Assembly (NCBI GenBank): GCA_964595945.1
Contig: CAZQSL010000009.1
Span: 1 to 49,903, forward strand
Source: an uncultured bacterium
Lineage (GTDB): Bacteria; UBP15; UBA6099; JAJRTR01
Length of the DNA stretch: 49,903 nucleotides
Direction of reading: 5' to 3'
Positions 16,954-46,741 of the stretch are shown one piece after another. Positions within the stretch are counted from its first letter, which is position 1, and every line of letters begins with the position of its first letter. The notes beneath the pieces are model-generated. The model was not told the origin of the DNA, did not search any database, and saw nothing but the letters and a program-made list of their open reading frames with translations. Made by a program: the position numbers and the translations under genes.

Positions 16954-19900
16954 TCATTCAGACGATACAAGCCATGTCTGGAAATGGTCGGGGTGAGTGA
17001 AATCCATGAAGAGCGAGACTTGCCGTTCGAGTTCAGGGAATAGTGCCGTTGCCTGTTCGATGTCGTTTTCTCGGGCGGCGATTTCGACGGCTGAGGCCGA
17101 GGCCCGAAGCTGTCTTGCGGCAACAATGGCGGCGTCGCCGTTGATTTTGTGCGAAACGGCCCTGATCGTATCGAAGTCTTTGGCTTCGATTCCCTGTATG
17201 ATGAGTTCGACATAGCCATCGATGCGCGAGCGAACACGTTCGACAAACTCGGAAGCATATTCCATGTCGTCATCATAGATAGTCTTGAATTCAGCGCGGT
17301 CGATGACATCGGCTCCTGGGGCCTGGTTTTCGCAGGATGGATGTGTGTTCTTTGGCTTGTTATCGTGTAGATGAATGGCGGAATGCATATTGCCGGACTC
17401 CATTGGAGTCTGTTTGATATATCGTTTGATCATGTTGGTCAGACTGTCAGGCAGGACAGGTTTGATGAGGTACTCGTCCATGCCCGATGCGAGCCCGCGA
17501 GCGCGGTCATCGGAGAAAGCGTAAGCGGAAAGGCCCACGATAGGTGTATGGCGACCGGTGGTGGTTTCCCAGTTGCGAATGCTTTGAGTCGCTTCGAAAC
17601 CATCGACGACCGGCATCTGGCAATCCATAAGTATGAGATCGTAACTGCCAGACATTGCCTTTTCGATCGCGATTGCGCCATTGTGCGCAATATCGCAGTC
17701 GGTTATACCGATGCGGTCGAGCATTTCCGTGATGACCATTTGATTGGTTTGATTGTCCTCGACGATGAGCAGGCGAGGGGAGCCATTGGCGAGAGTGAAC
17801 GATTCGAAGGAATCATCTTTGGAAGAATCGTTCATTATGCTGGCGGCAATTTCGAGGTTGACGGTAAACGAGAAAACCGCTCCGCCGTAGTCATTGTTTC
17901 CGGCACTGATCGAGCCGCCCATAGCTTCGACGATTTCGCGTGAGATGGAGAGGCCGAGGCCAGTGCCGCCGTTACTGTCGTGTAGTTGTGCGAATGGCTG
18001 GAAGAGTCCCTCGATGAGGTTATCGGGTATCCCGATGCCGGTGTCACTGACAGTGAAAGTCACGGGCGCATGCGAGTCGCCCGTGTCCTCGATCGCACAT
18101 GTGACGCTGATCGTTCCCCGTGAGGTGAATTTGATGGAATTGCCTACGAAGTTGACGAGCACCTGTCTGAGGCGCAGTCTGTCGGATTTTACACAAATGT
18201 ATTTGGAACCATGGAAAGTGGTTTTCAATACGAGTCCCTTTTCCTTTGCCTTGTGAGCCAGGAGACTGTCGATGTCAGTGAGGATTTCGTAGAGATTGAA
18301 AGTCTCGTTTGCGAGGGTGATGGCGCCGGCTTCGATGCGTGAAAAATCGAGGATGTCGGTAATGAGGCTCATCAGATGATCGGAGGCGGAAACGATGCTG
18401 TCAGTATACGATGCTGCTTTTTGTGGCAGTCCGAGGTCATTGAGCAGACGTCCGAATCCAACTATGGCGTTAAGCGGGGTGCGAAGCTCGTGGCTGATTT
18501 TTGACAGAAATACACTTTTGGCCCTGTTTGCGGATTCGGCTTTTTCCTTTTGGGTGATCAGTTCCGATTCGAGTTTCTTGAGACGGGTGATGTCGATTTG
18601 TGTGCCAGCCATACGGATTGGTTTGCCGTCGGGGTCGCGTTCGATGATTTTCCCACGGTTGAGCACCCATGAATATGATCCGTCGCAACTTTTCAGACGA
18701 TATTCTATTTCATACTTGCCGCTGACGCCTGTTATATAGTGTCTGAGTGTTTCAGCGACGTGCAGTTCGTCATCCGGATGGAGGAGTTCCTTCCAGACTG
18801 TGAGGGCAGAAATGCAGGGGTATGGCTCATAGCCGAGCATTGTCGCCCAACGGTCGTTGAGAGTTATTTCATCGGCGGGGATATTCCAGTCCCATATGCC
18901 GATGTCAGCGCCGAAGATCGCCATTTCAAGCCTTTCGCGGCTCTCCTGAAGCTGTTTTTCTGCAAGTTTTCTCTGTGTGATGTCTTCTGCGATGCCGGCA
19001 GTTCTGAGATTTTCGCCTTCCGTGCCAGCGACGACCCATGACTTGGTGCGTACCCATTTGATGGCTCCGCTTGGTGTGAAGATGCGGAACTCCTGATCGA
19101 AGACACCATTGTTTCTGAAGTCGTTATAATAAATCGTTTTCATCTTTTCGCGATCTTCTTCGACAATATAGTTGCCAAAAAGGGCCGGATTGTCATATAG
19201 TTCGTCGCGGGGGCGTTCCCATATCTGTTCATAGATTGGGCTGATATAGAGGACTTTATCGTTTGATCGAAGCCAGAAAATCTCGTTGACATTTTCTGCG
19301 ATCTGGCGGAATCTGTTTTCGCTTTCGCGAAAAGCGTCTTCCGCGAGTTTTCTGTCGTTGATATTTCTTTTGACCCCCTGAAATCCGATGTGTTTTCCGT
19401 TGGCGTCGAAAATAGGTTTTGTGATCACCTCCACCCAGCATAGGGAGCCATCCTTGCATGCGTGCTGGATCGTGAATTCACCGATTTGGCATTCCTCATA
19501 AACATCGATCGAGGCGAGCCTTGATTGTACTTCTTCGACTGCTTCCGGCGTGATGAATGCAAACAGGTTTTTCCCTATGAGATCATCGACTGTATATCCT
19601 GTCATCGCCTCTTCGGATTTGTTGACATAAGTAAAGTTGAGATCTCTGTCCATTTGCCAGACGACATCGATGATGTTTTCCGTGATGAAGCGGTATTTCG
19701 ATTCGCTTTCGAGTAATTGTTTCTCAGCGATTTTTCGCGAAGTGATATCTCTGATAATCGAGAGTGCTCCTATGTATTTTCCATCGCTGTCGAGGAGGGG
19801 AGTGAGATTGATTTCAGTCGGAAAAACAGTACCGTCCGCCTTGATGTGATCGATTTCCCTTACGACAGATACGGCATGCTCCCTTGCGGTCTGGTAGATT

Positions 19901-20835
19901 TCCGCTATTGCCGCCACACCTTCGGCAGTGACGAATTGTGAATAGTGAAGGCGTGTGACGTCAGTGCCCGGAGGGATGCCGCAGATTTTGTAAGCGACTG
20001 GCGAAGCGAACCTGATGAGGCCGTCCGGAGCTATCAGCACTATGGCATCGGGGGCGGCGTTGATGAGTGTCTGCGAGAGGATTTCAGCGTCTTTGCGTGC
20101 CGCATCAGCGTCGATAATGTCAGATATGTCCTGGATCGCGACAATAATCCCCCTGTTGACTTCGCGGCCCAATAGACATCCGGACATGAGGGCGGTGAAA
20201 ATCCTGCCATCCTTTGCCATAAATTCGATCTGTTTTTCTGAAATCACACCGGTTGTCTTCAATTCGTCGAGAAAAATAATGCGATTCTTTATGTCGAGAT
20301 ACATTTCCTGCGCTTTCGCCCTGGTAAGGTCCTCGGGGAGTTTCAGCAGGAGTCTGGCTTTTTTATTGGCAAATAAAATATGGCCGTCGAAATCCGTAAT
20401 TAAAATGGATACCGGGGCGAATTCCGCTATGATTTTGAATTTATCCCGGGAGACATCCTTGAAGGCACTGGTGTAGTGCGCTTCGTAAGACCTGTCTCGC
20501 ATTGTCACGGTGCACAGTCCGTCATCGGAAGGGATTGCGGTGCATTCGATCACGATCTGTTCGGCGAAAATGGTCTTTTCGATAATATCGCTCTGAGGGG
20601 TATTGGTCGAAAAAGCCGCATTTATCAGTTCCTCGACATTATCCACAATCGAGTCATGGAGCACGGTGTTGAGAGGCTTGTTCAGGCTGTCCGGGGGGAT
20701 TTGGAAGATGAAGCCATCTCTGGGGTTGTGACAAAACAGCAGTATACTCCCGGAGTCGACAATCAGCACCATATCCCTGATACCGTTCATCAGGGATGTC
20801 ATGATGGATTTTCCGTAATCTGTAATTGGACCCAT
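16954..20835 (-). CDS. Hybrid sensor histidine kinase with multiple PAS/PAC domains, HisKA, HATPase_c, receiver and C-terminal HPt domains
   Basis: At least five PAS-like repeats. H-box SHELRTPLN. HATPase G-boxes (DTGIGI, GGTGLGL). REC with LLIVEDN...D. HPt helix-bundle tail. Confidence 0.85.
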   Translation of the reverse strand: MGPITDYGKSIMTSLMNGIRDMVLIVDSGSILLFCHNPRDGFIFQIPPDSLNKPLNTVLHDSIVDNVEELINAAFSTNTPQSDIIEKTIFAEQIVIECTAIPSDDGLCTVTMRDRSYEAHYTSAFKDVSRDKFKIIAEFAPVSILITDFDGHILFANKKARLLLKLPEDLTRAKAQEMYLDIKNRIIFLDELKTTGVISEKQIEFMAKDGRIFTALMSGCLLGREVNRGIIVAIQDISDIIDADAARKDAEILSQTLINAAPDAIVLIAPDGLIRFASPVAYKICGIPPGTDVTRLHYSQFVTAEGVAAIAEIYQTAREHAVSVVREIDHIKADGTVFPTEINLTPLLDSDGKYIGALSIIRDITSRKIAEKQLLESESKYRFITENIIDVVWQMDRDLNFTYVNKSEEAMTGYTVDDLIGKNLFAFITPEAVEEVQSRLASIDVYEECQIGEFTIQHACKDGSLCWVEVITKPIFDANGKHIGFQGVKRNINDRKLAEDAFRESENRFRQIAENVNEIFWLRSNDKVLYISPIYEQIWERPRDELYDNPALFGNYIVEEDREKMKTIYYNDFRNNGVFDQEFRIFTPSGAIKWVRTKSWVVAGTEGENLRTAGIAEDITQRKLAEKQLQESRERLEMAIFGADIGIWDWNIPADEITLNDRWATMLGYEPYPCISALTVWKELLHPDDELHVAETLRHYITGVSGKYEIEYRLKSCDGSYSWVLNRGKIIERDPDGKPIRMAGTQIDITRLKKLESELITQKEKAESANRAKSVFLSKISHELRTPLNAIVGFGRLLNDLGLPQKAASYTDSIVSASDHLMSLITDILDFSRIEAGAITLANETFNLYEILTDIDSLLAHKAKEKGLVLKTTFHGSKYICVKSDRLRLRQVLVNFVGNSIKFTSRGTISVTCAIEDTGDSHAPVTFTVSDTGIGIPDNLIEGLFQPFAQLHDSNGGTGLGLSISREIVEAMGGSISAGNNDYGGAVFSFTVNLEIAASIMNDSSKDDSFESFTLANGSPRLLIVEDNQTNQMVITEMLDRIGITDCDIAHNGAIAIEKAMSGSYDLILMDCQMPVVDGFEATQSIRNWETTTGRHTPIVGLSAYAFSDDRARGLASGMDEYLIKPVLPDSLTNMIKRYIKQTPMESGNMHSAIHLHDNKPKNTHPSCENQAPGADVIDRAEFKTIYDDDMEYASEFVERVRSRIDGYVELIIQGIEAKDFDTIRAVSHKINGDAAIVAARQLRASASAVEIAARENDIEQATALFPELERQVSLFMDFTHPDHFQTWLVSSE

Positions 20836-20968
20836 AAGTGTTTTGTACCATTATTCACAAATGTCTTATATGGATTTTCCCCCATTTCTAACAATACAAA
20901 CAAATTTGGGCTCCAAATGTTTCTGGATAACGGTTGGGGCACGTGAATTCCCGACCTGATTCTTACAA

Positions 20969-20997
20969 TTGACCGCGAAGGGGAAATCAGGGATAAT
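20969..20997 (+). promoter_or_regulatory. Candidate sigma70 promoter of the BMC operon (TTGACC-17 nt-GATAAT)
   Basis: Seen in sequence, about 35 nt upstream of the eutN ATG. Spacing is exactly 17 nt. Confidence 0.4.
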
Positions 20998-21031
20998 AAG
21001 CAGATACATTTTATGGTGGGAGTGACGGCAC

Positions 21032-21319
21032 ATGGTACTCGGACGCGTCATAGGCACAGTAGTTGCAACACAAAAGAGTGATTCGCTAACGGGCAGAAAG
21101 CTGATGATGGTGCGCACACTCGATGTCGATCTCAAGCCGACGGAGGAGTATTTCGTTGCTGTGGATGCCGTGGGCTGCGGCAATGATGAAGTTGTGCTCT
21201 GCTCGAAGGGAAGCTCGGCGCGCCAGACTCCCCAGACAAAGAATACTCCCTCGGACATGGTTATTCTCGGCATCGTCGATTACGTTGATATCGATGGGCA
21301 GCAGATTTTCAAAAAGTGA
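21032..21319 (+). CDS. eutN: BMC vertex (pentamer) protein, EutN/CcmL/PduN family
   Basis: MVLGRVIGTVVATQK N-terminus and family length. GGGAG RBS. Confidence 0.9.
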   Translation: MVLGRVIGTVVATQKSDSLTGRKLMMVRTLDVDLKPTEEYFVAVDAVGCGNDEVVLCSKGSSARQTPQTKNTPSDMVILGIVDYVDIDGQQIFKK

Positions 21320-21422
21320 GTGCTGCCGCACAGTTTTCCATTCATGGTATGGCGGGATGGTGTTTTTTCAGTGTACATAATTATGGAATTAAAAAACATA
21401 TAAGGTTTATATGGAGGGTAAA

Positions 21423-21725
21423 ATGGAAAGCCGAATAGCACTTGGACTCATCGAAACCCGCGGACTCGTCGCCGCTATCGAAGCTGCTGACGCAATGGTC
21501 AAGGCAGCCAATGTCACTCTCGTCGGGAAAGAATACATCGGCGGAGGCTATGTCACCATCCTCATCAGAGGCGATGTAGGCGCTGTCAAGGCAGCCACGG
21601 ACGCAGGGGCTGCGGCAGTCGAAAAAATCGGTGAACTCGTCTCCGTACACGTCATTCCCAGACCGCACACCGATGTCGAACTTATCATACCCACCAAAGG
21701 CGTCGCTCCGAAAGCTACTAAATAA
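21423..21725 (+). CDS. eutM: BMC-H hexameric shell protein (EutM/PduA type)
   Basis: [27 protein letters not shown] canonical BMC domain. The upstream in-frame ATG GAGGG at 21411 more likely acts as the RBS. Confidence 0.9.
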
Positions 21726-21772
21726 GACTCCGGCGTTTCGGCTGACAATAGCGTTTCGCAATCATTCTTCGC

Positions 21773-21812
21773 GACGCACCGCGCCGTCTGCACACCGGCG
21801 GCGCGGTGCGTC
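21773..21812 (+). promoter_or_regulatory. Perfect 14-bp GC-rich inverted repeat (GACGCACCGCGCCG / CGGCGCGGTGCGTC, 12-nt loop) between the shell gene and eutB
   Basis: Seen directly. No downstream U-tract, so an intra-operon mRNA processing/stability or attenuator element is more likely than a terminator. Confidence 0.45.
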
Positions 21813-21826
21813 ATACGGGAGTTCTG

Positions 21827-23200
21827 ATGAAGCTTTCCACCACGATCAGAGGCCATTCTTATTCTTTCACCTCAGTTAAGGATGTCCTCGCAAAAGCTAA
21901 TGAGGAAAAATCCGGCGATACCCTCGCGAAGGTCGGCGCATTGTCCGATCTGGAGCGCATCGCCGCCAAACACGTACTTAGCGAACTCACTCTCGAAGAC
22001 CTTCGCAATAATCCCGTCGTACCCTATGAGGAAGACGAAGTGACGCGCGTCATCGACGACCAGGTCAACGAGACTATCTATGCTGACATCAAAAACTGGT
22101 CAGTCGGCGAGCTGCGCGAGTATATCCTCAAACCCACGACCACTAATCACCACATCCGCCGCATTTCCAACGGCCTGACATCCGAAATGGTTGCCGGGTG
22201 CGCGAAGCTTATGGGCGCTATGGACCTGATACTCGGCGCACAAAAGATCGAAGTGGTCGTTCACGCAAACAACACGATAGGACTTCCCGGCACACTTGGT
22301 TCGCGCCTCCAGCCCAATCATCCCACCGATGACATTGACGGCATACTTGCTTCGGCAAAGGAGGGGCTGGCCTACGGCTGCGGCGATGCGGTCATTGGCG
22401 TAAACCCTTGCATCGATTCACCCAAGAAGGTCACCGAAATCCTCAAGGCGCTCGAAGAAGTCCGCCTGAAGTGGGACATACCGACGCAGTTGTGCGTACT
22501 CGCTCACGTCACCACACAAATGGAAGCCATCAAACTCGGCGCGCCCACCGGCCTCACATTCCAGTCGCTCGCCGGCAGCGAAGCCGCCTGCAAGGCGTTC
22601 GGCATAAATGTCGCGATGCTCGACGAGGCATACGAACTTTCTAAAAAATACAACAATGCCGCCGGTCCCAATGTCATGTACTTCGAGACAGGGCAGGGGT
22701 CCGAACTATCCTCTAACGGACATCACGGCGCCGACCAGACAACACTCGAAGCCCGCTGCTACGGCCTCGCGAAACGCTATAGTCCTTTCATGGTCAATTC
22801 CGTCGTAGGATTCATCGGCCCAGAATATCTCTTCAATGGACGGCAGGTGATACGCGCCGGACTCGAAGATCATTTCATGGGCAAGCTCACCGGCATTTCG
22901 ATGGGCCTCGACTCCTGCTACACCAATCACATGGACACCGATCAATCCGACATAGAAAACCTCGCCGTGCTGCTGACCATGGCTGGCATCAATTTCTTCA
23001 TGTGCGTGCCGATGGGCGATGACATCATGCTCAACTACCAGCTCACATCGTTCCATGACATCGCCGCGCTACGTGAAATCTGTGGCAAACGTCCCGCGCC
23101 GGAATTCGAACAGTGGCTCGAAAAAATTGGTCTCATGGAAAACGGCCGCCTCACAAAGCTCGCGGGCGACGCATCTTTTTTTGACGGGGAGGCCCGATGA
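21827..23200 (+). CDS. eutB: Ethanolamine ammonia-lyase large subunit
   Basis: Full-length EutB similarity (MKLSTTIRG...). GGGAG RBS. The ORF-track GTG at 21806 is an upstream extension. Confidence 0.92.
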   Translation: MKLSTTIRGHSYSFTSVKDVLAKANEEKSGDTLAKVGALSDLERIAAKHVLSELTLEDLRNNPVVPYEEDEVTRVIDDQVNETIYADIKNWSVGELREYILKPTTTNHHIRRISNGLTSEMVAGCAKLMGAMDLILGAQKIEVVVHANNTIGLPGTLGSRLQPNHPTDDIDGILASAKEGLAYGCGDAVIGVNPCIDSPKKVTEILKALEEVRLKWDIPTQLCVLAHVTTQMEAIKLGAPTGLTFQSLAGSEAACKAFGINVAMLDEAYELSKKYNNAAGPNVMYFETGQGSELSSNGHHGADQTTLEARCYGLAKRYSPFMVNSVVGFIGPEYLFNGRQVIRAGLEDHFMGKLTGISMGLDSCYTNHMDTDQSDIENLAVLLTMAGINFFMCVPMGDDIMLNYQLTSFHDIAALREICGKRPAPEFEQWLEKIGLMENGRLTKLAGDASFFDGEAR

Positions 23201-24048
23201 GCCAGTCGGACGATCTCAGGAAACTCATAGCGGAAGTTGTCCGCGACGTGCTCGAAGAAACAGGGGCAACAGCTCAGGCCGAACCTGCCACAACATACGG
23301 CGCTGACGGTGACGATCTGCGGAACCGTGTGCTCATGCCATGTGAAAAGCAGCGCGCGGCTCTTGAAAAAATGCGCCAGTCAACCCCCGCCCGTATCGGC
23401 GTCTGGCGCGCGGGAGCACGCTATAAAACCGAATCCTACCTCAAGGCGCGAGCCGATCATGCCGTCGCACGTGATGCTGTCCTCATATCGCTCGATAAGG
23501 CGAAAATCGAACAGCTCGGCATCCTGTATGTCGATTCGGCCGCCGCTAACAAAACGGAATTTCTCATCAATCCCTCGCTTGGCCGCCGACTGTCCGATGT
23601 GTCCGCCGAATCCGTAAAGGCGAATTGCCCGTCGGAAACTGACGTTCAGATCGTCATCTGCGATGGCCTTTCATCGGCTGCCATCGAACTCAACATTGCT
23701 TCGTTCCTTCCGGCACTTATGAATAACCTTCAGGGCAAGGGCCTCAAACTCGGCAAACCAATCTATGTGAATAACGGACGCGTTGCCGTGCAGGATCAGA
23801 TCGGCGATATCCTTCGCCCACGTATCGCACTCAGCATCGTCGGCGAACGCCCCGGACTCGTGACTGCCGAATCGATGGGCTGTTACATTACTTACAATCC
23901 ATCATCCGAACGCGTCGAAGCCGAGCGCACCATGATTTCCAATATCCACAAAGGTGGACTGCATCCGCAGAAAGCAGCTGTGGAAATTGCAGAAAAGACA
24001 CGCAAAATTTTCGATCAGAAAGCCTCAGGAATGGGCTTCAAGGAGTAA
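23197..24048 (+). CDS. eutC: Ethanolamine ammonia-lyase small subunit with N-terminal amphipathic encapsulation-peptide-like helix
   Basis: ATGA overlap with eutB. VAVQDQIGDILRPRIALSIVGERPGL core. N-terminal DDLRKLIAEVVRDVLEE. Confidence 0.9.
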   Translation: MSQSDDLRKLIAEVVRDVLEETGATAQAEPATTYGADGDDLRNRVLMPCEKQRAALEKMRQSTPARIGVWRAGARYKTESYLKARADHAVARDAVLISLDKAKIEQLGILYVDSAAANKTEFLINPSLGRRLSDVSAESVKANCPSETDVQIVICDGLSSAAIELNIASFLPALMNNLQGKGLKLGKPIYVNNGRVAVQDQIGDILRPRIALSIVGERPGLVTAESMGCYITYNPSSERVEAERTMISNIHKGGLHPQKAAVEIAEKTRKIFDQKASGMGFKE

Positions 24049-24056
24049 TCACCAAG

Positions 24057-24710
24057 ATGCCTCTCGAACCAGTAAAACCAAAAGTCCTTGCCGCACGGAT
24101 TATTCCGCGCGTCAACGATTTCTATCATAAGCAACTTGATCTTCTGCCCGAAGAAGCGTGCATCGGCATGATTACGGCCACGTCCGACGATGCAACATAC
24201 GTATCGCTCGACCACGCGACTAAAGCCGCACAGGTGCGGGTCGTTTATGCCGAATCATTCTACGCTGGCGCGGGAGCGGCGTCCGGCCCACTGAGCGGCG
24301 AAGTCATCGGCATCATTTCAGGCACTGATCCGTCCGAGGTGAAAAGTGGCCTCGACGCGGCCATACAGTACCTTGAAGAAAGCGCGTGGTTCTACACCGG
24401 CGACGACGATGGACACCTCGTATTCTTTCCGCATGTCATTTCACGCGCTGGCGCATATCTGTCCGATCTCGCGCAGGTGCCTTTCGGCAGTCCTCTTTCA
24501 TATCTCATCGCGCCCCCTATCGAAGCCATGTACGCAATGGACCGTTCGCTCAAGGAAGCGGATGTGCAGATGCAGGTGTTCTGGGGTCCGCCGTCGCACA
24601 CCAACTTTGCTGGATGCCTGCTGACAGGTTCGCAAAGTGCGTGTCAGGAATCGGCAAAAGTGTTTTCAGATGCAATCATTGAAGTGGCAGCAAACCCGAT
24701 GCGATTCTGA
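24057..24710 (+). CDS. eutL: BMC-T tandem-domain shell protein EutL
   Basis: Length and sequence are typical of EutL. AGGAG RBS. Confidence 0.85.
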   Translation: MPLEPVKPKVLAARIIPRVNDFYHKQLDLLPEEACIGMITATSDDATYVSLDHATKAAQVRVVYAESFYAGAGAASGPLSGEVIGIISGTDPSEVKSGLDAAIQYLEESAWFYTGDDDGHLVFFPHVISRAGAYLSDLAQVPFGSPLSYLIAPPIEAMYAMDRSLKEADVQMQVFWGPPSHTNFAGCLLTGSQSACQESAKVFSDAIIEVAANPMRF

Positions 24711-24786
24711 TCTGTCGCAGACAAATGTATTTTTGGCCGGATTACCGAATCCCGGCGAAACAAAATAACGGTCAAGAGTGATCACA

Positions 24787-26229
24787 ATGGACAAAGACCT
24801 CGCAGGAATACAGGAAGCACGCGACAAGGTGGCGGCCGCGGTTGCCGCGCAAAAACTACTCGCCGAATTTTCCCAGGAGAAGATCGACCGAATTGTCGCC
24901 CGCATGTGTCAGGCAGGAGCACAGGCAGCCGAAAAGCTCGCGCGTATGGCTGTCGAAGAATCCGGCATGGGCAAAGTTGACGACAAAACCGCGAAAAACG
25001 AACTCGCCACCAGCGGGCTGTATGAATATATTAAGGATATGAAAACCGCAGGCATCGTCAGTGAAGACAAGACGCGAAAAATGTGGGAAGTGGCCGTACC
25101 GGTCGGCGTAGTCGCGGCGATCACGCCCACCACCAATCCAACGTCTACAACGATGCACAATGCGATAGTGGCGATGAAGGCCCGTTGCGCCTCGGTCATC
25201 AGCCCACATCCGCGCTCGAAGAACTGTTCTGCCGAAGCCATCGGCATACTGATGGCGGCGGCGCATTCAGCCGGCGCACCCGAAGGCTCGCTTAATTGTC
25301 TTACATCAGGCACGATGGGTGGCACGACTGAAATAATGAAGAACAGCGGCACGTCGGTCATCGTCGCCACCGGTGGTTCCGACATGGTTCGCGCGGCATA
25401 TTCATGCGGAAAACCGGCCTATGGCGTTGGCCCCGGCAATGTCCCCGCATTCATAGAACGAACCGCCGACATCGAAAAAGCGGTCCGCGATGTCCTGATT
25501 TCAAAATCATTCGATTATGGTGTGATATGCGCGTCCGAACAGGCCATTGTCACTGAAAGGCCAATTCGCGACAAGGTTATTGCGTCGCTTAAACGCAATG
25601 GAGCTTATGTGATGAACACCGATGAAATTGCTAAAATCAATAAAATCATACAGACTCCGGCAGGTGGCCTCAACGCTAAAATTGTCGGGCAGAGCGCCGA
25701 AAAGCTGGCTCAGATGGCAGGATTCAGCGTGCCGAAAAACACGCCCGCACTCGTCGGTGAAATCGACGGCGTTGGGAAAGCATATCCACTTTCCCGCGAA
25801 AAACTCGCCCCGATCCTCGCGCTCTATGTAGAAGACGGATGGGAAAGCGCGTGCGCGCGCTGCATGGAAATGCTCGAATATGGTGGTATTGGTCACACAC
25901 TCGGGCTCCATACGACGAACATTGACCTTGTCAAGGAATTCGCTCTCAAAAAACCTGTCGCACGTCTCATCGTAAATTCGCCGACAACACATGGCGCGGT
26001 TGGTCTTTCTACCGGACTTGCCCCGTCGTTTACACTCGGGTGCGGCGCGGTCGGCGGCACTATTACGACCGACAACATCACGCCCATGCACCTGATAAAT
26101 CTAAAACGTGTAGCGTTCGAACTGAAATCCTTCAACAAGCCCTCCGGCCCGGTCACTACTGATGATGGCGACCTCTCGGGCACAATCCGCAAAGTTGTTT
26201 CACGTCTCATGAAAGAGCAGGCAAAATGA
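24787..26229 (+). CDS. eutE: CoA-acylating acetaldehyde dehydrogenase EutE
   Basis: ALDH fold with catalytic Cys in GVICASEQ. The start could instead be the GTG at 24778. The C-terminal tail [29 protein letters not shown] resembles a linker plus encapsulation helix. Confidence 0.85.
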
Positions 26230-26990
26230 AGAGAGAAGTCCTGACTGAAATAAAACTTCGCGCCCTGAAAAAACAGGGCATTAATCAGGTGGCAATCACC
26301 GAAGGTACGCTTGTCACGCCATCAGCGCGCGACTTTGCCCGGCAGGCTGGCATAACTGTCACGGTCAACGAAGCATCTGTCGCCACGTCCGCGCCTTCGA
26401 AGACAGCCGGGAAATACACTCCGCCCGTAGCGCCAAAAGGCTCCTTCACTAACAGCTATACTGGCGAATCGCTCGATGCGAAACCCGAACATTTTACACA
26501 TCTGCAAGGCAATGTGCTTGTGCAGAAGAATCACCCGCGCATTGCATTCCGTGGCCAGATCGACAAAATTCAGGCCTACGTCGTCGAAGCTCAGATACTT
26601 GCGAAACAGGAGAAAATACCCGCTCTCGAATCAGACCTCGACGATGTGCTCAAGCTCCTGCGCGAGATTATGCGCGCCGAAGTACGCGACGTACCGCTTG
26701 CTGATGTTCCGGTTTTCGGTCTTACTGTCGAGCAACTCCGGGAGGCGTCACACAATCCAGCTAAATTTTTCAATACCGGCCATACGCTTGCCGATAAAAA
26801 TTCGAGCATGGCGGTCGCGCGTATCAACATCATGCGGACCATCGTCCGCGAGGCCGAAATCACCGCGCTTGACGCATTCGCGGGCGGTGTCACTCTCAAG
26901 CCCGAACGCAGTGATATTCTAACTGCCATGAACCGCCTTTCGAGCGCGTTTTACATCTTGATGTGCAAATATTCTGGAGGGTCGGAATGA
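26226..26990 (+). CDS. eutT: EutT-type ATP:cob(I)alamin adenosyltransferase
   Basis: ATGA overlap with eutE. N-terminal LTPSARDF motif and C-terminal ILTAMNRLSSAFYILM motif align to Salmonella EutT. Confidence 0.8.
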   Translation: MKREVLTEIKLRALKKQGINQVAITEGTLVTPSARDFARQAGITVTVNEASVATSAPSKTAGKYTPPVAPKGSFTNSYTGESLDAKPEHFTHLQGNVLVQKNHPRIAFRGQIDKIQAYVVEAQILAKQEKIPALESDLDDVLKLLREIMRAEVRDVPLADVPVFGLTVEQLREASHNPAKFFNTGHTLADKNSSMAVARINIMRTIVREAEITALDAFAGGVTLKPERSDILTAMNRLSSAFYILMCKYSGGSE

Positions 26991-27655
26991 GCGCACGCGA
27001 AGACCAGATCGCCGCGCGAATACTCGCGGAACTAAATAAGGATAAAACGCAGGCGGCGCCAGGCGCGCGATGCAAACTTGACCGCAAATCCATACCAGTC
27101 GGCATTTCCAACCGTCACCTGCACCTCTGCCGGGCCGATCTTGACGCGCTATTCGGTTCGGGGTATGAACTTTCGAAAAAGAATGACCTGTCGCAGAAAG
27201 GGGAATTCGCTTCGAACGAACTGGTCACGCTCACCGGCCCACGGGGCAGCATAGAAAAGGTTCGAGTGCTCGGCCCGCTTCGCCCGGAAACACAGATTGA
27301 AATTTCTCCGACTGATGCCCGCCGCCTCGGAGTGATGCCCCCAGTGCGTCTTTCCGGAGATACCAAAGGCACGCCTGGCCTCACTATCAAGGGGCCGGCT
27401 GGCGAAGTGAAAATGAATTCCGGGCTGATCATCGCCAAGCGTCATCTGCACGCCAATCCCGAACAGGCCAAAGTGCTCGGACTCCGCGATGGCGATGTCA
27501 TCAGCATAAGGGCGCTGACCGAACGGCCCACAATATTCGAAGGCGTGTCAGTCAGAGTGCGCCCGTCATTTGAAATCGAACTCCACATCGATGTGGACGA
27601 AGCCAACGCCGCGATGATAAATAACGGCGACTCAGTCGAAATTGTGAGGAAATAA
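26987..27655 (+). CDS. pduL: PduL-type phosphotransacylase (phosphate acetyl/propanoyl-transferase) with N-terminal encapsulation peptide
   Basis: ATGA overlap with eutT. GGAGG RBS. Duplicated PduL half-domains. Confidence 0.85.
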   Translation: MSAREDQIAARILAELNKDKTQAAPGARCKLDRKSIPVGISNRHLHLCRADLDALFGSGYELSKKNDLSQKGEFASNELVTLTGPRGSIEKVRVLGPLRPETQIEISPTDARRLGVMPPVRLSGDTKGTPGLTIKGPAGEVKMNSGLIIAKRHLHANPEQAKVLGLRDGDVISIRALTERPTIFEGVSVRVRPSFEIELHIDVDEANAAMINNGDSVEIVRK

Positions 27656-27957
27656 TGGCTAAATACAGATTCATAAAAACTCCGACCCGCAACACCATAG
27701 AAATCATCAAGCGCCGGCTCGTAAGCCGTGACCGTGCCGACGAACTCGACTGGACGGCAGTCGGCCTTGTGCAATGCAGTGTGGCCGACATCATCTACGC
27801 ATCCGATGTTGCCGAAAAAACTTCCGATATAATCGCGCTCGAACTCTCCGGCACATGCCCGCAGCACATCACCACTCTTGCGTTGTTCGGCGAAACGGCG
27901 GCGGTCGACGCGGCGCTCGAATCAGTCAAACGCGCTCTCGCCGAGACCGAATGCTGA
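27655..27957 (+). CDS. Circularly permuted BMC shell protein (EutS/PduU type)
   Basis: About 100 aa with a permuted BMC fold. TAATG overlap with pduL. Confidence 0.8.
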   Translation: MAKYRFIKTPTRNTIEIIKRRLVSRDRADELDWTAVGLVQCSVADIIYASDVAEKTSDIIALELSGTCPQHITTLALFGETAAVDAALESVKRALAETEC

Positions 27958-27995
27958 CACGGTGAAACATATATAAAGGATTAAGGTGGGAATCA

Positions 27996-29321
27996 TTGAA
28001 CCGCGATGAACTCGTAAAAATTGTCAGGGACGCTGGAATTGTTGGCTGCGGCGGCGCGGGGTTCCCAACGCACGTCAAGGTCAATGCCAGCGCCGAAGTG
28101 GTGATCGCTAACGGCGCATCGTGCGAACCGCTCCTGCATTCGGACATCCATCTACTCGAACACGAGGCCGGAGGCGTAGTGCGCGGACTGCGTTATGTGA
28201 TGGATGCCGTCGGCGCGAAACGCGGTGTCATTGCCATCAAAAAGAAACATCCAGAAGCCATTTCCGCGGTGGAGCGAGTACTCACAACCGGGATTGAAAT
28301 TTTTACGCTCGAAGATTTTTATCCCGCTGGCGATGAACAGGTTCTCGTATATGAAATCATGGGCAAAATTGTGCCTGAAGGGGGCATTCCGCTCAATGTC
28401 GGCGCGGTTGTGGACAACATCGAAACGCTGTTCAACATCACTCGCGCAGTCGATGGATTCCCCGTCACGCACAGGTGGCTGACGGTAGCGGGAGCAGTGA
28501 GGAAACCCCGCGTGATGCTCGCTCCCGTTGGTGCGCCACTTAGTGAAATACTCGCGCTCGCGGGCGGTGCCACTGTCACGAGTGCCGGCTATATCGAGGG
28601 CGGTCCGATGATGGGCAAAATCATTGACATCGAAACTGCCGTCGTCAAAAAGACCACCACCGGACTGCTTGTTTTTCCGGCTGATCATGTGATTTTTACA
28701 CGCCGCGAAATGTCAATCGAAGCGATCATCAGGCGCGGCATGTCTGCCTGCACGCAATGTACTTACTGTACGGACATGTGCCCGCGATACCTGATCGGCC
28801 ATCGACTGCGCCCCAATCTCACGATGCGCTCCGTCGCGTTCAGCCATTTCGATCCCGAAGGCCCGGCTTCCGATGCCCTTATTTGCTGTGAGTGTGGAGT
28901 CTGCGAAACGACTGCCTGCAATCTCGGCCTGTCGCCGATGCGCGTGAACATGATGCTGAAGAAAAGATATGCGGAAGAGGGCGTAAAATTCAAACGGACG
29001 GAAACGGCGCTCGAAGTCCATCCGTTCAGGTATGCACGGCTCACGCCGATCAAAAATATCATGCAGCGCGGCGACATGCTTGAATGGTACGGGCAGAAAT
29101 TATCAGATGTTACTGAGCTTTTCACGCAACGAGTGGAAGTGCCTCTTAGCCAGCACATAGGCGCTCCTTGTGAAGCTATCGTAGCTCCTGGAGCAAAGGT
29201 GAAGCTGTTCGAAATGATAGGCAAACCATCCGATGGAAAACTCGGCGCGCCGGTGCATTCACCGATAGACGGAACTGTAAAAGATATTACTGACGGAAGA
29301 ATAACAATTGAGGCGAAATGA
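27996..29321 (+). CDS. pduS: PduS-like cobalamin reductase (RnfC/NqrF-like flavin-NAD domain plus two 4Fe-4S clusters)
   Basis: N-terminal GIVGCGGAGFPTHVK motif. Cys clusters CTQCTYCTDMCP and CCECGVCETTAC. TTG start after AAGGTGGG RBS. Confidence 0.8.
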   Translation: MNRDELVKIVRDAGIVGCGGAGFPTHVKVNASAEVVIANGASCEPLLHSDIHLLEHEAGGVVRGLRYVMDAVGAKRGVIAIKKKHPEAISAVERVLTTGIEIFTLEDFYPAGDEQVLVYEIMGKIVPEGGIPLNVGAVVDNIETLFNITRAVDGFPVTHRWLTVAGAVRKPRVMLAPVGAPLSEILALAGGATVTSAGYIEGGPMMGKIIDIETAVVKKTTTGLLVFPADHVIFTRREMSIEAIIRRGMSACTQCTYCTDMCPRYLIGHRLRPNLTMRSVAFSHFDPEGPASDALICCECGVCETTACNLGLSPMRVNMMLKKRYAEEGVKFKRTETALEVHPFRYARLTPIKNIMQRGDMLEWYGQKLSDVTELFTQRVEVPLSQHIGAPCEAIVAPGAKVKLFEMIGKPSDGKLGAPVHSPIDGTVKDITDGRITIEAK

Positions 29322-29875
29322 TGCAGCGAACAATCGGAATGGTTGAATTTCTCAGCGTCGCTAAGGGCATCGAAGGTATCGACGTAATGCTCAAGGCGGC
29401 GGATGTGCAGCTACTTGCGGCAAAACCACTCTGTCCCGGCAAATACATGGTGATGGTAGGCGGCGACGCGGCAGAAGTGGACAGTTCCGTGCAGGCAGGC
29501 ATCAGACATGGCTCGCACTTCATCGTCGGTTACACCTGCATCAACAATGTCCATGAAATGGTGTTCCCTGCGATATGGGGCACTTCAAAATACGACTTGC
29601 GCGCGCTCGGTGTCGTAGAGACTTACAACGTCGTAACAGCAGTTCGCGCAGCCGACATCGCGGCGAAATCAGCCGACATCGAATTGATCGAGCTCCGGCT
29701 TTCGGTTGGCCTCGGCGGCAAGGCATTCATCACACTAACCGGATATGTAGACGCCGTACAGACAGCAGTGGATGCCGGGGCGGCGCTCGCCAACGCTACG
29801 GGCGAACTCGTCAGCAGCGTGGTTATCGCAGCTCCTCATCCTGATTTACACAGGGCGATCAGTACGCCCGTCTGA
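29318..29875 (+). CDS. pduT: BMC-T tandem shell protein, PduT-like
   Basis: 185 aa, two BMC domains. ATGA overlap with pduS. Confidence 0.8.
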   Translation: MMQRTIGMVEFLSVAKGIEGIDVMLKAADVQLLAAKPLCPGKYMVMVGGDAAEVDSSVQAGIRHGSHFIVGYTCINNVHEMVFPAIWGTSKYDLRALGVVETYNVVTAVRAADIAAKSADIELIELRLSVGLGGKAFITLTGYVDAVQTAVDAGAALANATGELVSSVVIAAPHPDLHRAISTPV

Positions 29876-30207
29876 TGAAAAATGACGACTCACACAGGTG
29901 CGATATGGGAAAACTTATTACGAAAAAAGAGATTGTAGAAGCAAACGCGAAACACTTTTCGGAACTCGAAGTGCCATGCGACGCCATCATCACCCCACTT
30001 GCGCAGGATGCCGCGAAACAATATGGCATCGAGATCGTAAAGTCGGGCGGCCCAAGCCGCGCGTGTGACGTACGCTCGCTTCAGGGCGGAGCGGTCGATG
30101 AGGCGGCCATCGAGAAAATCGCGCGCATGGCAATAAGCGACCTCGGTGATAAAGCCGACCTCGAAACGGTCATCCGCATTGTCGAAAAAGTCGTCAGGAA
30201 AATGTAG
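29875..30207 (+). CDS. Small BMC-operon protein homologous to the N-terminal domain of EutT (ITPLAQD motif) with an amphipathic C-terminal helix
   Basis: ATGA overlap with pduT; the start could instead be the ATG at 29905 after an AGGTG. Motif EVPCDAIITPLAQDAAKQYGIEIV parallels EutT QVAITEGTLVTPSARDFARQAGITVTV. The C-terminal DLETVIRIVEKVVRKM resembles the EutE tail [14 protein letters not shown]. Confidence 0.6.
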   Translation: MKNDDSHRCDMGKLITKKEIVEANAKHFSELEVPCDAIITPLAQDAAKQYGIEIVKSGGPSRACDVRSLQGGAVDEAAIEKIARMAISDLGDKADLETVIRIVEKVVRKM

Positions 30208-30309
30208 TTGCATGTCACAAATCTATCGACGGATCATGATCGTGTCATCGGATGACAAATGGACTACCCGTTTTTCCCGGGCGAAGTGTTCGGGGGCTTT
30301 GGGGTAATT

Positions 30310-30771
30310 TTATACGAAATAGTACCATTTGTTCATTGGGATTTCTTGTGGATGTATTTCATGGATCGTTCTGATAATTTGCTCCGAGTATTGAACTGCA
30401 ATGTCGGCATCTTCATCAAGCACTTTCATCACGACATCATTGTCGCCTGATGATCGATATCTGAAAAGCTTGGAGTGCATTTCCCCAAAATCCTGCTGGT
30501 ATCTTCCACTTTTCACAAGTTCACGGGGAACTGCTGATGCGACTTGCTGATGTTTCTTGAACATCGCGCCTTCCATTACAGCAAACAATGCACATACAGC
30601 ATAGAACGCAGCGTAGTAAGCCCGATTTGTCAGATCGAAGCCAGTCCTGACTTGCAGGCGATCATCGCGGTCAATTCGCAGGGCCGTCAGAAGATCACGC
30701 GCAAGGCATACTTCAAGATCGAGTTCACGAACGGCTCCATCATCAACTTTAGACCGGTTGGCGCTTACCAT
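30310..30771 (-). CDS. HEPN domain protein (solo, no MNT partner)
   Basis: RAYYAAFYAVCALFA helix. The C-terminal half matches the HEPN pattern. The ORF-track upstream start is a TTG; the ATG at 30771 is chosen. Confidence 0.55.
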   Translation of the reverse strand: MVSANRSKVDDGAVRELDLEVCLARDLLTALRIDRDDRLQVRTGFDLTNRAYYAAFYAVCALFAVMEGAMFKKHQQVASAVPRELVKSGRYQQDFGEMHSKLFRYRSSGDNDVVMKVLDEDADIAVQYSEQIIRTIHEIHPQEIPMNKWYYFV

Positions 30772-30838
30772 TACAAGCAGTTCGCAATTATTGCGACTGC
30801 CCAATGCGGCATATGGATTTCCACATGCCGCATTGGGC

Positions 30839-44327: not shown

Positions 44328-46574
44328 GTGAGACAGACAATCATTGGGCTAATAATTGTTTTGGCGGCAATAATTGCTCCGGCTGGAGCGCATGCCGCAG
44401 GGTTTATCGTACCGCTCCCCACCACTGATCCTGCTCCTGCTCCAAACCGGGTGAAATTCGACATCAGTTATCAGCACATCGCCGTTTCGATCACAGAGGC
44501 GGCGGCGCGCACAACCATCGAGCAGACAATCGTCAACCGAACGCTCCGGCCGGTAGAAGGATGGTATGTCTTTCCAGTCCCCGAGGGCGCGGCCGTCAGC
44601 AAATTTTCCCTTTTCGTCAACGATATGGAAATTGCCGGTGAAATCCTTGATCGTGATAAGGCCAGGAGTATCTATGAAGATATCGTGCGCCGCGCACAGG
44701 ATCCCGCACTGCTCGAGTTGGCCGGCAAAGGCATTTTTCGCGCACGCATATTTCCCATCGAAGCCGGGGGCTCCCGCAAAATCAAGCTTTCCTATGTTTC
44801 CACTCTCCCATCCACAGGCGGAGCATGGCACTACAACTGCCCCATCAAGTCTCCTCAGTACTCAGGCGGAGTTACTGAAACTGCCATCACGGTCAACCTG
44901 TCGTCAAAATTCCCCCTTCGCAATATCTACTCTCCCTCTCATATCATTCGCACAAGCCGGTCCGGCAAAAACTCCGCAACCATCTCGGTCACGGAAAAAG
45001 ACAATATGCCATCTGCCGATTTCGATCTGTTTTTCGACACGAGCCGCGAAGGCATGGGCCTCTCACTCCTGACATATTTCCCGCGCCGCGAAGACGGCTA
45101 CTTCATGTTACTCGCATCTCCAGGCCTGCGCGAAGACCCTGACACGATCACACCCAAAGATATTGTATTTGTCTTCGACCGCACGGGCAGCATGAGCGGC
45201 AGCAAAATGGAACAGGCAAGAAACGCTCTCGTCTACTGCCTCCGTTCACTCAACAAAAACGACAGATTCAACGTCATAACCTTCAATGAATCCCCCTCAC
45301 CCATATTCAATCAACTACGTATCGCGTCATCGTCAAACATCAGAGAAGCCGTCGAAGAAGTCTCGGACATGCAGGCCGCGGGTGGCACCAACATCAATGA
45401 CGCCCTCACCAGCGCATACAAAATGCTCGATCCGCAAAACAGGCGTCCCTCATATATCATATTTCTCACGGACGGACTCCCCACCGCCGGCATTACCAGC
45501 ATCGCCGACATCATATCCAATGTCACAAAAGCTGCCCGCAAAGTCAACGCAAGAATATTCACGTTCGGCGTAGGGTACGACGTCAACACGCTGCTCCTCG
45601 ATACCCTCACGGAACGCGTCGGCGGGTATGGCGCTTATGTCCGCCCGGAAGAAGATATCGAAGTGAAAGTCAGCGATCTGTTCCGCATGGTCAACAACCC
45701 TGTCCTGACCGGGCCGGAAATCGACTTCGGCGGACTCGCCCCTTACGACATCACTCCCGCAAAGTATCCTGACATCTACAGCGGCACCAACCTCATCATC
45801 ACGGGCCGGCTCAAACACAACATCCCTTCGACAATCATCATCGAAGGTGCCGAGACAGGCCACCAGCGCAAGTATCTGTACACCTATGCGCCCGAAGACT
45901 CCAGCGGCCAGTCGGACTTCATCCCCACCATCTGGGCCGCGCGGCGCATCGGCACTCTCATCAAGGAGATTCAGATCAACGGATCGAACACCGAGCTTGT
46001 CGAAGAAATCGTCCGCCTCAGCAAACGATATGGCATAGTCACCGAATACACATCGTTCCTCGCTCGCGAAGATGTCCGAATCGATACATACTCCATTCAG
46101 CAGATGACTGCAAGCGCGGACCGGACCATGAATGAAGCACAAAAGGAAAAATCTGGCAAGGCCTCGGTCAGCAGAAGCATCGCCAACAACGCAATGCAAA
46201 TGGCCGACAACACAGCCGCCATCGGCAAGGGCTATGGTGCCAGCCCAGACTCAGCGCAGCCATCTTCAGCTCCTGTGAAACCCGATGCTCATCCCGTCCC
46301 CGCATCACTTGTCATGGCCGGAGCCCGTGCTTTCAAGCATGCGGACAATCGCTGGATAGACACCAATGTCGATGCCTCCACCAGGATCATCGAAATCAAA
46401 TCCTTCAGTGACGCCATGTTGGAACTCATCACAAAACTACCCGAACTCCGCGAATGCGCAGCAATAGGCGACGACGTAACCATCCTTGTCATCCCCGGAT
46501 ACGCCGTCAGATTCCACGGCGCCGGCGCGACGAAACTCAACGGTGAAATATCCGATAGCCTTCAGTTGAAATGA
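44328..46574 (+). CDS. Secreted VIT domain plus von Willebrand factor A domain protein
   Basis: Signal peptide. VIT N-domain. VWA MIDAS DRTGSMSG. GTG start after AGGAGGA RBS. Confidence 0.8.
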   Translation: MRQTIIGLIIVLAAIIAPAGAHAAGFIVPLPTTDPAPAPNRVKFDISYQHIAVSITEAAARTTIEQTIVNRTLRPVEGWYVFPVPEGAAVSKFSLFVNDMEIAGEILDRDKARSIYEDIVRRAQDPALLELAGKGIFRARIFPIEAGGSRKIKLSYVSTLPSTGGAWHYNCPIKSPQYSGGVTETAITVNLSSKFPLRNIYSPSHIIRTSRSGKNSATISVTEKDNMPSADFDLFFDTSREGMGLSLLTYFPRREDGYFMLLASPGLREDPDTITPKDIVFVFDRTGSMSGSKMEQARNALVYCLRSLNKNDRFNVITFNESPSPIFNQLRIASSSNIREAVEEVSDMQAAGGTNINDALTSAYKMLDPQNRRPSYIIFLTDGLPTAGITSIADIISNVTKAARKVNARIFTFGVGYDVNTLLLDTLTERVGGYGAYVRPEEDIEVKVSDLFRMVNNPVLTGPEIDFGGLAPYDITPAKYPDIYSGTNLIITGRLKHNIPSTIIIEGAETGHQRKYLYTYAPEDSSGQSDFIPTIWAARRIGTLIKEIQINGSNTELVEEIVRLSKRYGIVTEYTSFLAREDVRIDTYSIQQMTASADRTMNEAQKEKSGKASVSRSIANNAMQMADNTAAIGKGYGASPDSAQPSSAPVKPDAHPVPASLVMAGARAFKHADNRWIDTNVDASTRIIEIKSFSDAMLELITKLPELRECAAIGDDVTILVIPGYAVRFHGAGATKLNGEISDSLQLK

Positions 46575-46700
46575 TCCTGACTGGGAGTATCCCTCGCGGA
46601 ACGAGTGAATATGTTGTACCGATTAGCATCCATTGAAGTACCATGAGTAGCGCGGCGGCGGGGTTCGTTATACCACGCCCAACATCAGAAACAAACGGCT

Positions 46701-46741
46701 GGTGTGATCCCCGTATTGCGGGGATCACACCAGAGATTTTT
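46701..46741 (+). terminator. Rho-independent terminator candidate (13-bp GC stem GGTGTGATCCCCG/CGGGGATCACACC, 5-nt loop, then AGAGATTTTT)
   Basis: Seen directly, downstream of the VIT-VWA gene in a convergent intergenic region. Confidence 0.5.

Follow-up and report, generated by a model that had tools for sequence, protein, structure and literature searches.

Stem-loops that lie between the genes of an operon and act as 3' stabilisers of the mRNA segment before them are known from selective RNA processing and stabilisation (SRPS), of which the intercistronic hairpins of Rhodobacter puf and the REP element of E. coli malE-malF are older examples. In the SRPS study, 28 of the 33 stem-loops at intergenic processing sites lacked a U-run and the genes downstream of them were still transcribed; in these operons for heteromultimeric complexes the stem-loops come at the 3' ends of the genes with the most abundant transcripts, and the transcript ratio correlates with stem-loop free energy (PMC4423207). 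The known RNA mechanism specific to eut loci is EutV/ANTAR antitermination (PMC5821096, PMC3369931), whose target consists of two tandem small hairpins with hexanucleotide loops that carry A1 and G4, the second hairpin overlapping the 5' arm of a terminator (PMC3369931). Microcompartments need many more shell hexamers than enzymes, wrong ratios lead to aberrant or empty shells, and the way in which the shell:enzyme ratio is naturally set is poorly documented for metabolosomes. A literature search found no description of hairpins after shell genes in metabolosome operons, GRM (glycyl radical) loci included.

The hairpin described here lies in such an operon, within a window (the whole stretch of DNA that was analysed, 49,903 nucleotides long) from an organism of a deep lineage: its UvrB is 64-68% identical to the nearest sequences and 58% identical to that of named Bacillota. 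The parts of the operon that surround the hairpin are the following.

21032..21319, + strand: eutN, coding for the BMC-P vertex protein (PF03319, 108 bits), the first gene of the operon
21411..21725, + strand: the BMC-H shell gene (PF00936, 105 bits), the only canonical single-domain hexamer gene of the operon
21726..21772, + strand: the 5' part of the spacer, unstructured, with two GCGTTTCG copies and an A/U-richer single-stranded stretch
21773..21812, + strand: the hairpin, located by an inverted-repeat search and RNA folding
21813..21829, + strand: the eutB translation initiation region, with an AUA linker, the Shine-Dalgarno GGGAG at 21817-21821 and the ATG at 21827-21829
21827..23200, + strand: eutB, coding for the large subunit of ethanolamine ammonia-lyase (PF06751, 695 bits), the first of ten tightly packed genes

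The Pfam assignments agree with the preliminary description, which had placed the hairpin after eutN and BMC-H and before eutB. The BMC-H protein is 72-83% identical to EutM/PduA-like BMC-H proteins. Its true start is probably the ATG at 21423 rather than the first ATG at 21411; a consensus Shine-Dalgarno, GGAGGG at 21413-21418, lies ahead of the ATG at 21423 and is a stronger ribosome-binding site than the GGGAG of eutB. After eutB, Pfam identifies EutC, an EutL-like protein, an aldehyde dehydrogenase, a PduO-type adenosyltransferase and PduL, and then a tail that comprises a weak BMC protein, a PduS/RnfC-like protein, BMC-T and a small EutQ-like protein, ending at 30207. All ten genes from eutB to 30207 are co-oriented, with spacers of 0-67 nt and no hairpin stronger than -13.8 kcal/mol. 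Because the succession of a PduS-like gene and BMC-T in the tail is common to the window and to GRM-type loci, the microcompartment locus (16954-30207) is a mosaic, in which an EUT core (eutB, eutC, eutL-like, aldehyde dehydrogenase, PduO-type adenosyltransferase and PduL) is joined to a GRM-like tail (PduS/RnfC-like, BMC-T and the small EutQ-like protein). The eut transcription unit likely ends past its final gene at 30274-30316, where a hairpin of modest stability (about -20 kcal/mol in a 60-nt context) precedes the U-rich tail CTTTGGGGTAATTTTAT.

A few other features of the window deserve mention. A divergent hybrid PAS histidine kinase of 1293 aa with receiver and Hpt domains adjoins the microcompartment locus, and the window also codes for type IV pilus proteins and sigma-54 regulators. 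In the transcript of the - strand, 30799-30838 forms a further perfect 14-bp hairpin that lacks a T-run (arms GCCCAATGCGGCAT / ATGCCGCATTGGGC, 12-nt loop). It starts immediately past the stop (30839) of a gene that codes for 313 aa and matches no family, and a HEPN-domain gene comes after it, so that the genome has at least one more U-less stem-loop between genes.

The preliminary description had reported a perfect 14-bp repeat at 21773-21786 / 21799-21812 lying directly upstream of the eutB ribosome-binding site. These coordinates are exact, with arms of 14 nt (GACGCACCGCGCCG / CGGCGCGGTGCGTC) that are 100% complementary and separated by 12 nt, and the placement is equally right, the stem ending at 21812 just ahead of the Shine-Dalgarno at 21817-21821. 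RNA folding adds two further pairs, giving a 16-bp stem made entirely of Watson-Crick pairs (21773-21788 / 21797-21812) closed by an 8-nt loop, UGCACACC. The stem-loop folds with -35.2 kcal/mol (z = -6.38), a value that none of 200 dinucleotide shuffles matched, and it accounts for 73% of the ensemble. The arms are 86% G+C, against 52% for the whole window. Perfect inverted repeats with arms of 12 nt or more and loops of 3-20 nt number only three in the roughly 50-kb window, all of them at or between gene ends. In 40 dinucleotide shuffles of the window their mean number was 0.03, and arms of 14 nt or more never occurred. Since shuffled windows are nearly devoid of repeats of this kind, the hairpin repeat is far beyond what chance would produce. 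The spacer of 101 nt that separates BMC-H from eutB, in which the hairpin stands 47 nt from the BMC-H stop and 14 nt from the eutB start, is also the sole structured spacer of the operon (z -7.0 versus -1.2 to +0.7 elsewhere) and has a G+C content of 63% versus 36-45% in the other operon spacers, whose best hairpins range from -1.7 to -13.8 kcal/mol.

In the bacteria in which intrinsic termination has been tested, it is known to need a U-tract. No T-run lies 3' of the stem on either strand, the tail being ATACGGGAGTTCTG on the plus strand and GCGAAGAATG on the minus strand; the 8 nt after the stem, ATACGGGA, hold a single T, and a terminator scan of 20700-22200 returned 0 terminator-like sites. 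Elsewhere in the window, a perfect 15-bp hairpin at 46699-46733, located 125 nt past the stop of a VIT/VWA gene (44328-46574), is followed by AGATTTTTC with its T5 run. By its sequence it is a canonical intrinsic terminator, which indicates that the organism uses U-tract terminators. The same identity was considered for 21773-21812 and rejected: the stem is of the kind that such a terminator has, but the T-run is absent and ten co-oriented genes follow that have no promoter-like site ahead of them. The consensus scans identified one candidate sigma-70-like promoter in 20700-22200, at 20969-20997, and no sigma-70-like or sigma-54-like promoter in 21726-21826, between the BMC-H stop and eutB. 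As eutB has no promoter-like site of its own past the hairpin, it depends on read-through along with the nine genes behind it, and this, together with the missing U-tract, means that the hairpin must be transcribed through and stays inside the mRNA. An early judgement from the letters of the sequence, that the hairpin was unlikely to be a full terminator, therefore stands, on the strength of the lack of a U-tract, the U-tract terminator at 46699-46733 and the lack of a eutB promoter-like site.

A weaker form of termination has to be weighed at this point. The hairpin could be a partial transcription attenuator, in which a stable structure makes a fraction of the polymerases pause or terminate even without a U-tract, so that less of eutB and the later genes is transcribed. 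The stem is far more stable than typical terminators, and at the boundary of shell and enzyme genes an attenuator would have the same stoichiometric outcome as a stabiliser; there is documented precedent, in other operons, for subunit ratios set by internal terminators (PMC9045158). We nevertheless regard attenuation as decidedly unlikely, given the single T past the stem, the negative consensus scan, the contrast with the T5 of the terminator at 46699-46733, and the lack of an antiterminator partner, of an ANTAR domain and of A1/G4 hexaloops.

The last of these points concerns the mechanism known from other eut loci. We enumerated all 6-nt loops closed by stems of at least 3 bp in 21700-21830 and found none with both A1 and G4, and tblastn with EutV, EutW and EutA from another eut locus (L127) recovered receiver domains only, with no ANTAR, EutW or EutA in the window. 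EutV/ANTAR antitermination was rejected on these two grounds. No Rfam family, the AdoCbl riboswitch included, matched the window at gathering thresholds. Below threshold, E-value mode over 20700-21900 gave a single minus-strand match to flpD, of 24.1 bits where the cutoff is 40 bits, which we dismiss as a chance match to a GC hairpin.

The remainder of the spacer is plain by comparison with the stem. The 47 nt upstream of it (21726-21772) have no structure (z +0.62). Two copies of GCGTTTCG had been said to precede the hairpin, and they are real (21733-21740 and 21751-21758), but they are weak evidence of anything: the octamer is over-represented across the window, with 11 copies versus 3.9 expected and 0 of 100 shuffles reaching 11. 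Because the word is so common, the region is unstructured and the second copy is unable to form the hairpin of the first, we rejected these repeats as a protein- or RNA-binding motif. The octamer is also found at, for example, 5673, 10242 and 34133, and the word bias is possibly tied to codon usage. Just 5' of the stem lies an A/U-richer single-stranded stretch, AAUCAUUCUU at 21760-21769, which is a conceivable entry site for an endonuclease.

On the other side of the stem, the eutB initiation region begins 1 nt past its end, and the proximity of the two raises the prospect that the hairpin serves eutB rather than the shell genes. If the mRNA were cut 5' of the stem, for example in AAUCAUUCUU, the stem would be left as a protective structure at the 5' terminus of the message for eutB and the genes after it, and it might in addition, or instead, tune eutB translation by partial occlusion of the Shine-Dalgarno. 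The geometry suits such a role, as the stem stops 4 nt short of the Shine-Dalgarno and 14 nt short of the ATG, the A/U-richer single-stranded stretch is in the right place, and an extension helix that joins 21764-21771 with 21816-21822 is predicted to pair the core bases of the Shine-Dalgarno (p > 0.9). However, this helix is worth only about -4 kcal/mol (-39.3 versus -35.2) and would be easily opened by a ribosome, and the Shine-Dalgarno itself lies outside the main stem; strong sequestration of the eutB ribosome-binding site is considered unlikely because the extension helix is too weak for it. Furthermore, no relative has a conserved structure 5' of eutB, and the recurrent association described below is with the 3' ends of BMC-H genes, whatever gene lies downstream. 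We therefore consider an element acting on the 5' side of eutB to be quite unlikely.

A palindrome may also act as DNA. A 14-bp palindrome with a 12-bp centre could be bound by a dimeric regulator, serving as an operator or a roadblock within the operon, and its perfect dyad symmetry is what such a site would show; the large hybrid sensor kinase beside the operon could be seen in the same light, although no DNA-binding partner for it was identified. A search of the 49.9-kb window that allowed up to three mismatches recovered no second copy or half-site of the hairpin, the operon leader included, and there is no nearby promoter to regulate. Arms of 14-16 bp and 86% G+C moreover look like those of an RNA hairpin and not like an operator. 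A DNA-level site is in our estimation highly improbable.

The history of the junction bears on a further reading, in which the hairpin has no function. The window EutB is a singleton: besides one identical short Logan contig, which has an identical spacer, a search of 5.8 billion proteins gives 69% identity for the next relative. The PduS-like protein likewise has no relative above 49% identity. BMC-H is not next to eutB in any of 80 related genome loci or in the P0002, P0003 and P0005 loci, and no shell gene at all adjoins eutB in these 80 loci or in the loci of the top EutB matches, the latter having the usual order eutS-eutP-eutV-eutW-eutA-eutB. None of these relatives has a junction orthologous to BMC-H/eutB. 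In most of the 80 related loci an eutA-sized gene is directly upstream of eutB. The five loci that hold the closest BMC-H homologues (76-83% identity) are the most informative, as in these BMC-H is followed by an unstructured spacer of 18-33 nt, an ORF of 484-493 codons, which is the size of eutA, and then eutB. The 101-nt spacer of the window thus occupies the place of eutA, and its hairpin is regarded as an acquisition specific to this lineage. Several of the closest EutB relatives have, as a separate peculiarity, a tandem pair of eutB paralogues before a single eutC, with about 62-69% identity to the window EutB, at these positions.

L006, 3001-5736: tandem eutB paralogues
L007, 1216-3946: tandem eutB paralogues
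L127, 3645-6396: tandem eutB paralogues
L128, 4455-7206: tandem eutB paralogues

The missing eutA gives the non-functional reading its main footing. Since the window has no eutA where its relatives carry an eutA-sized ORF, the spacer marks a point of rearrangement, and the hairpin could be a neutral or selfish palindrome, either a scar or a REP/MITE-like insertion at that place, which is tolerated as it does not terminate transcription and whose effects on expression would be incidental. A perfect stem with no G-U pairs that is far richer in GC than its surroundings is what one sees in young palindromes or in those that exist at the level of DNA. Some Oscillospiraceae eut loci do contain strong T-less hairpins, but these are REP-like intergenic palindromes present in multiple copies.

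L045, 2914-6251: 4 copies of a palindrome of about 35 nt
L055, 93-6326: 6 copies of a ATAAACGATCATTTAT-like motif
L066, 1539-1564 and 2780-2805: an identical 26-nt palindrome, twice, plus a 154-nt repeat, twice

The occurrence of such elements in eut loci speaks for the neutral reading, but their copy number sets them apart from the hairpin in question: L045 and L055 each have several copies of their element within 7 kb, whereas the hairpin is a single copy in a 50-kb window even at up to three mismatches. A metagenome scan for the arm core of 12+12 nt retrieved 45 loci; as these have unrelated loops and flanks and lie on contigs of 57-75% GC, we take them to be coincidences. The closest BMC-H homologues are followed by unstructured spacers, and the Bacillota-type EUT loci have no excess of hairpins after BMC-H, so the trait is lineage-specific and could be neutral. 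On balance we regard a neutral or selfish origin as unlikely.

In the approximately 80 Bacillota-type EUT relatives, strong hairpins are not a feature of the sequence after BMC-H, which fares no better in this respect than the sequence after other genes, so the pattern does not hold for EUT loci at large. The best hairpin within 110 nt past BMC-H has a median of -10.7 kcal/mol in these loci and reaches -20 kcal/mol or below in 7 of 59. The PduS-like protein of the window led to a second group of relatives, the GRM-type (glycyl radical) loci with a PduS-like gene followed by BMC-T at their tail. In four of these loci all eight BMC-H genes are followed by a long spacer (57-269 nt) and a strong hairpin.

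L134, 4975-5078 and 8720-8776: spacers after BMC-H
L136, 3652-3744 and 7488-7756: spacers after BMC-H
L138, 4700-4857 and 8705-8811: spacers after BMC-H
L140, 4929-4990 and 8645-8831: spacers after BMC-H

The hairpins in these spacers are GC-rich and often perfect; within 60 nt their free energies range from -22 to -47 kcal/mol, with z from -2.5 to -5.8. Seven of the eight have no T-run, the exception being the hairpin between BMC-H and Fe-ADH in L136, which has a T-rich tail. Their sequences are mutually unrelated, the downstream gene is either PTAC or Fe-ADH, and the BMC-H proteins before them (90-97 aa) are 73-76% identical to that of the window. Two other loci, L139 and L141, do not have the feature. 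In the four GRM loci hairpins also recur behind the gene for the glycyl radical enzyme and behind BMC-T, in the latter case sometimes with a T-rich tail. Across six loci, a hairpin of -20 kcal/mol or below is present at 8 of 11 junctions after BMC-H versus 14 of 86 other junctions (Fisher p = 2e-4), a test that overstates independence because the GRM loci are homologous operons. Restricting the comparison to spacers of 25 nt or more leaves 8 of 10 versus 14 of 40 (p = 0.013), two of the compared loci being GC-rich with hairpins in most of their long spacers. Even with these caveats, the association is with the 3' end of BMC-H and not with a particular downstream gene. No comparable tendency is seen 5' of eutB, which in the approximately 80 relatives is preceded by another gene, mostly eutA-sized.

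We tentatively favour, with a confidence that falls somewhat short of even, the hypothesis that the hairpin is an SRPS-type 3' stabilising stem-loop for the shell-gene segment made up of eutN and BMC-H. Several properties lead us to this reading: the exceptional structure, the missing U-tract, the lack of a promoter-like site before eutB, the position after BMC-H with its consensus Shine-Dalgarno, the SRPS precedent, the recurrence in GRM loci and the want of a comparable tendency 5' of eutB. Against it, 47 nt separate the hairpin from the BMC-H stop but only 14 nt from the eutB start, whereas most of the GRM hairpins are near the stop codon, and the Bacillota-type EUT loci do not share the pattern. 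The structural and positional traits of SRPS elements, as given by PMC4423207, are nonetheless seen in this one, which is a stable U-less stem-loop, intergenic within a polycistronic operon and 3' of the gene for a highly required subunit.

Hypothetically, the mechanism would involve the following steps. The eut operon would be transcribed as a single polycistronic mRNA, in which the hairpin forms an intercistronic stem-loop at the 3' end of the segment coding for eutN and BMC-H. RNA polymerase would pass the hairpin, the U-tract being absent, and an endonuclease would then cut the long mRNA in single-stranded RNA near the hairpin. Once the message is cut, a stem of -35 kcal/mol would block 3'-to-5' exonucleases, and the eutN-BMC-H fragment would outlive the remainder of the mRNA that codes for the enzymes. 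We infer both the processing and the difference in stability from the structure and its setting. The outcome would be more shell protein than enzyme from one promoter, with eutN co-stabilised along with BMC-H; that the hairpin raises the shell:enzyme ratio in this manner is plausible. A second and minor effect may be a mild damping of eutB translation, exerted by the stem at 4 nt from the Shine-Dalgarno together with the weak extension helix.

A broader proposal is that strong stem-loops after BMC-H, in most cases U-less, recur in metabolosome operons as a design feature that has not yet been described and that would set the shell:cargo transcript ratio post-transcriptionally. We consider this possible, but the balance of probability is clearly against it. 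If it were correct, the window hairpin would have been acquired independently, at a junction made by the loss of eutA, which would speak for selection rather than inheritance. Furthermore, if the hairpins of the window and of the GRM loci are indeed 3' stabilisers, they would offer a simple and portable part for tuning shell to cargo in engineered compartments, and post-BMC-H hairpins would be worth annotating in BMC loci. Taken alone, the window presents an ordinary type of operon fine-tuning with a putative function.

Compared with known systems, the hairpin is closest to the SRPS stem-loops, such as those of the cip-cel cellulosome operon of Clostridium cellulolyticum (PMC4423207). Both are U-less intercistronic stem-loops in operons for a multisubunit assembly, the downstream genes being transcribed, and both come directly after the gene whose product is expected in the highest copy number. 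However, the stem of the window is much stronger (-35 kcal/mol, versus an average of about -23 kcal/mol near 3' processing sites; PMC4423207) and stands nearer to the ribosome-binding site of the next gene than to the upstream stop codon.

The GRM loci L134, L136, L138 and L140 share with the window a GC-rich, near-perfect stem-loop in an unusually long spacer after BMC-H, as well as the tail of a PduS-like gene and BMC-T. They differ in that they are built around a glycyl radical enzyme and not EutBC, and in their hairpins, which are unrelated in sequence, often tandem and mostly nearer to the stop codon, with a function that is likewise putative.

The remaining systems resemble the hairpin in fewer respects. 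Intrinsic (Rho-independent) terminators are also GC-rich stem-loops downstream of a gene, but the window hairpin has no U-tract, and behind it come ten co-oriented genes with no promoter-like site. The EutV/ANTAR-controlled terminators of Firmicute eut loci (PMC5821096, PMC3369931) are RNA hairpins in an eut-locus spacer upstream of the position of eutA/eutB, as is the hairpin described here; its spacer, however, has neither the dual A1/G4 hexaloop motif nor a U-tract, and the window codes for no ANTAR regulator or EutW. REP/BIME palindromes, finally, are GC-rich palindromes of about 40 nt that reside in the intergenic spacers of operons and can also stabilise upstream mRNA, whereas the window hairpin is a single copy in 50 kb, with no related copies in the metagenome scan.
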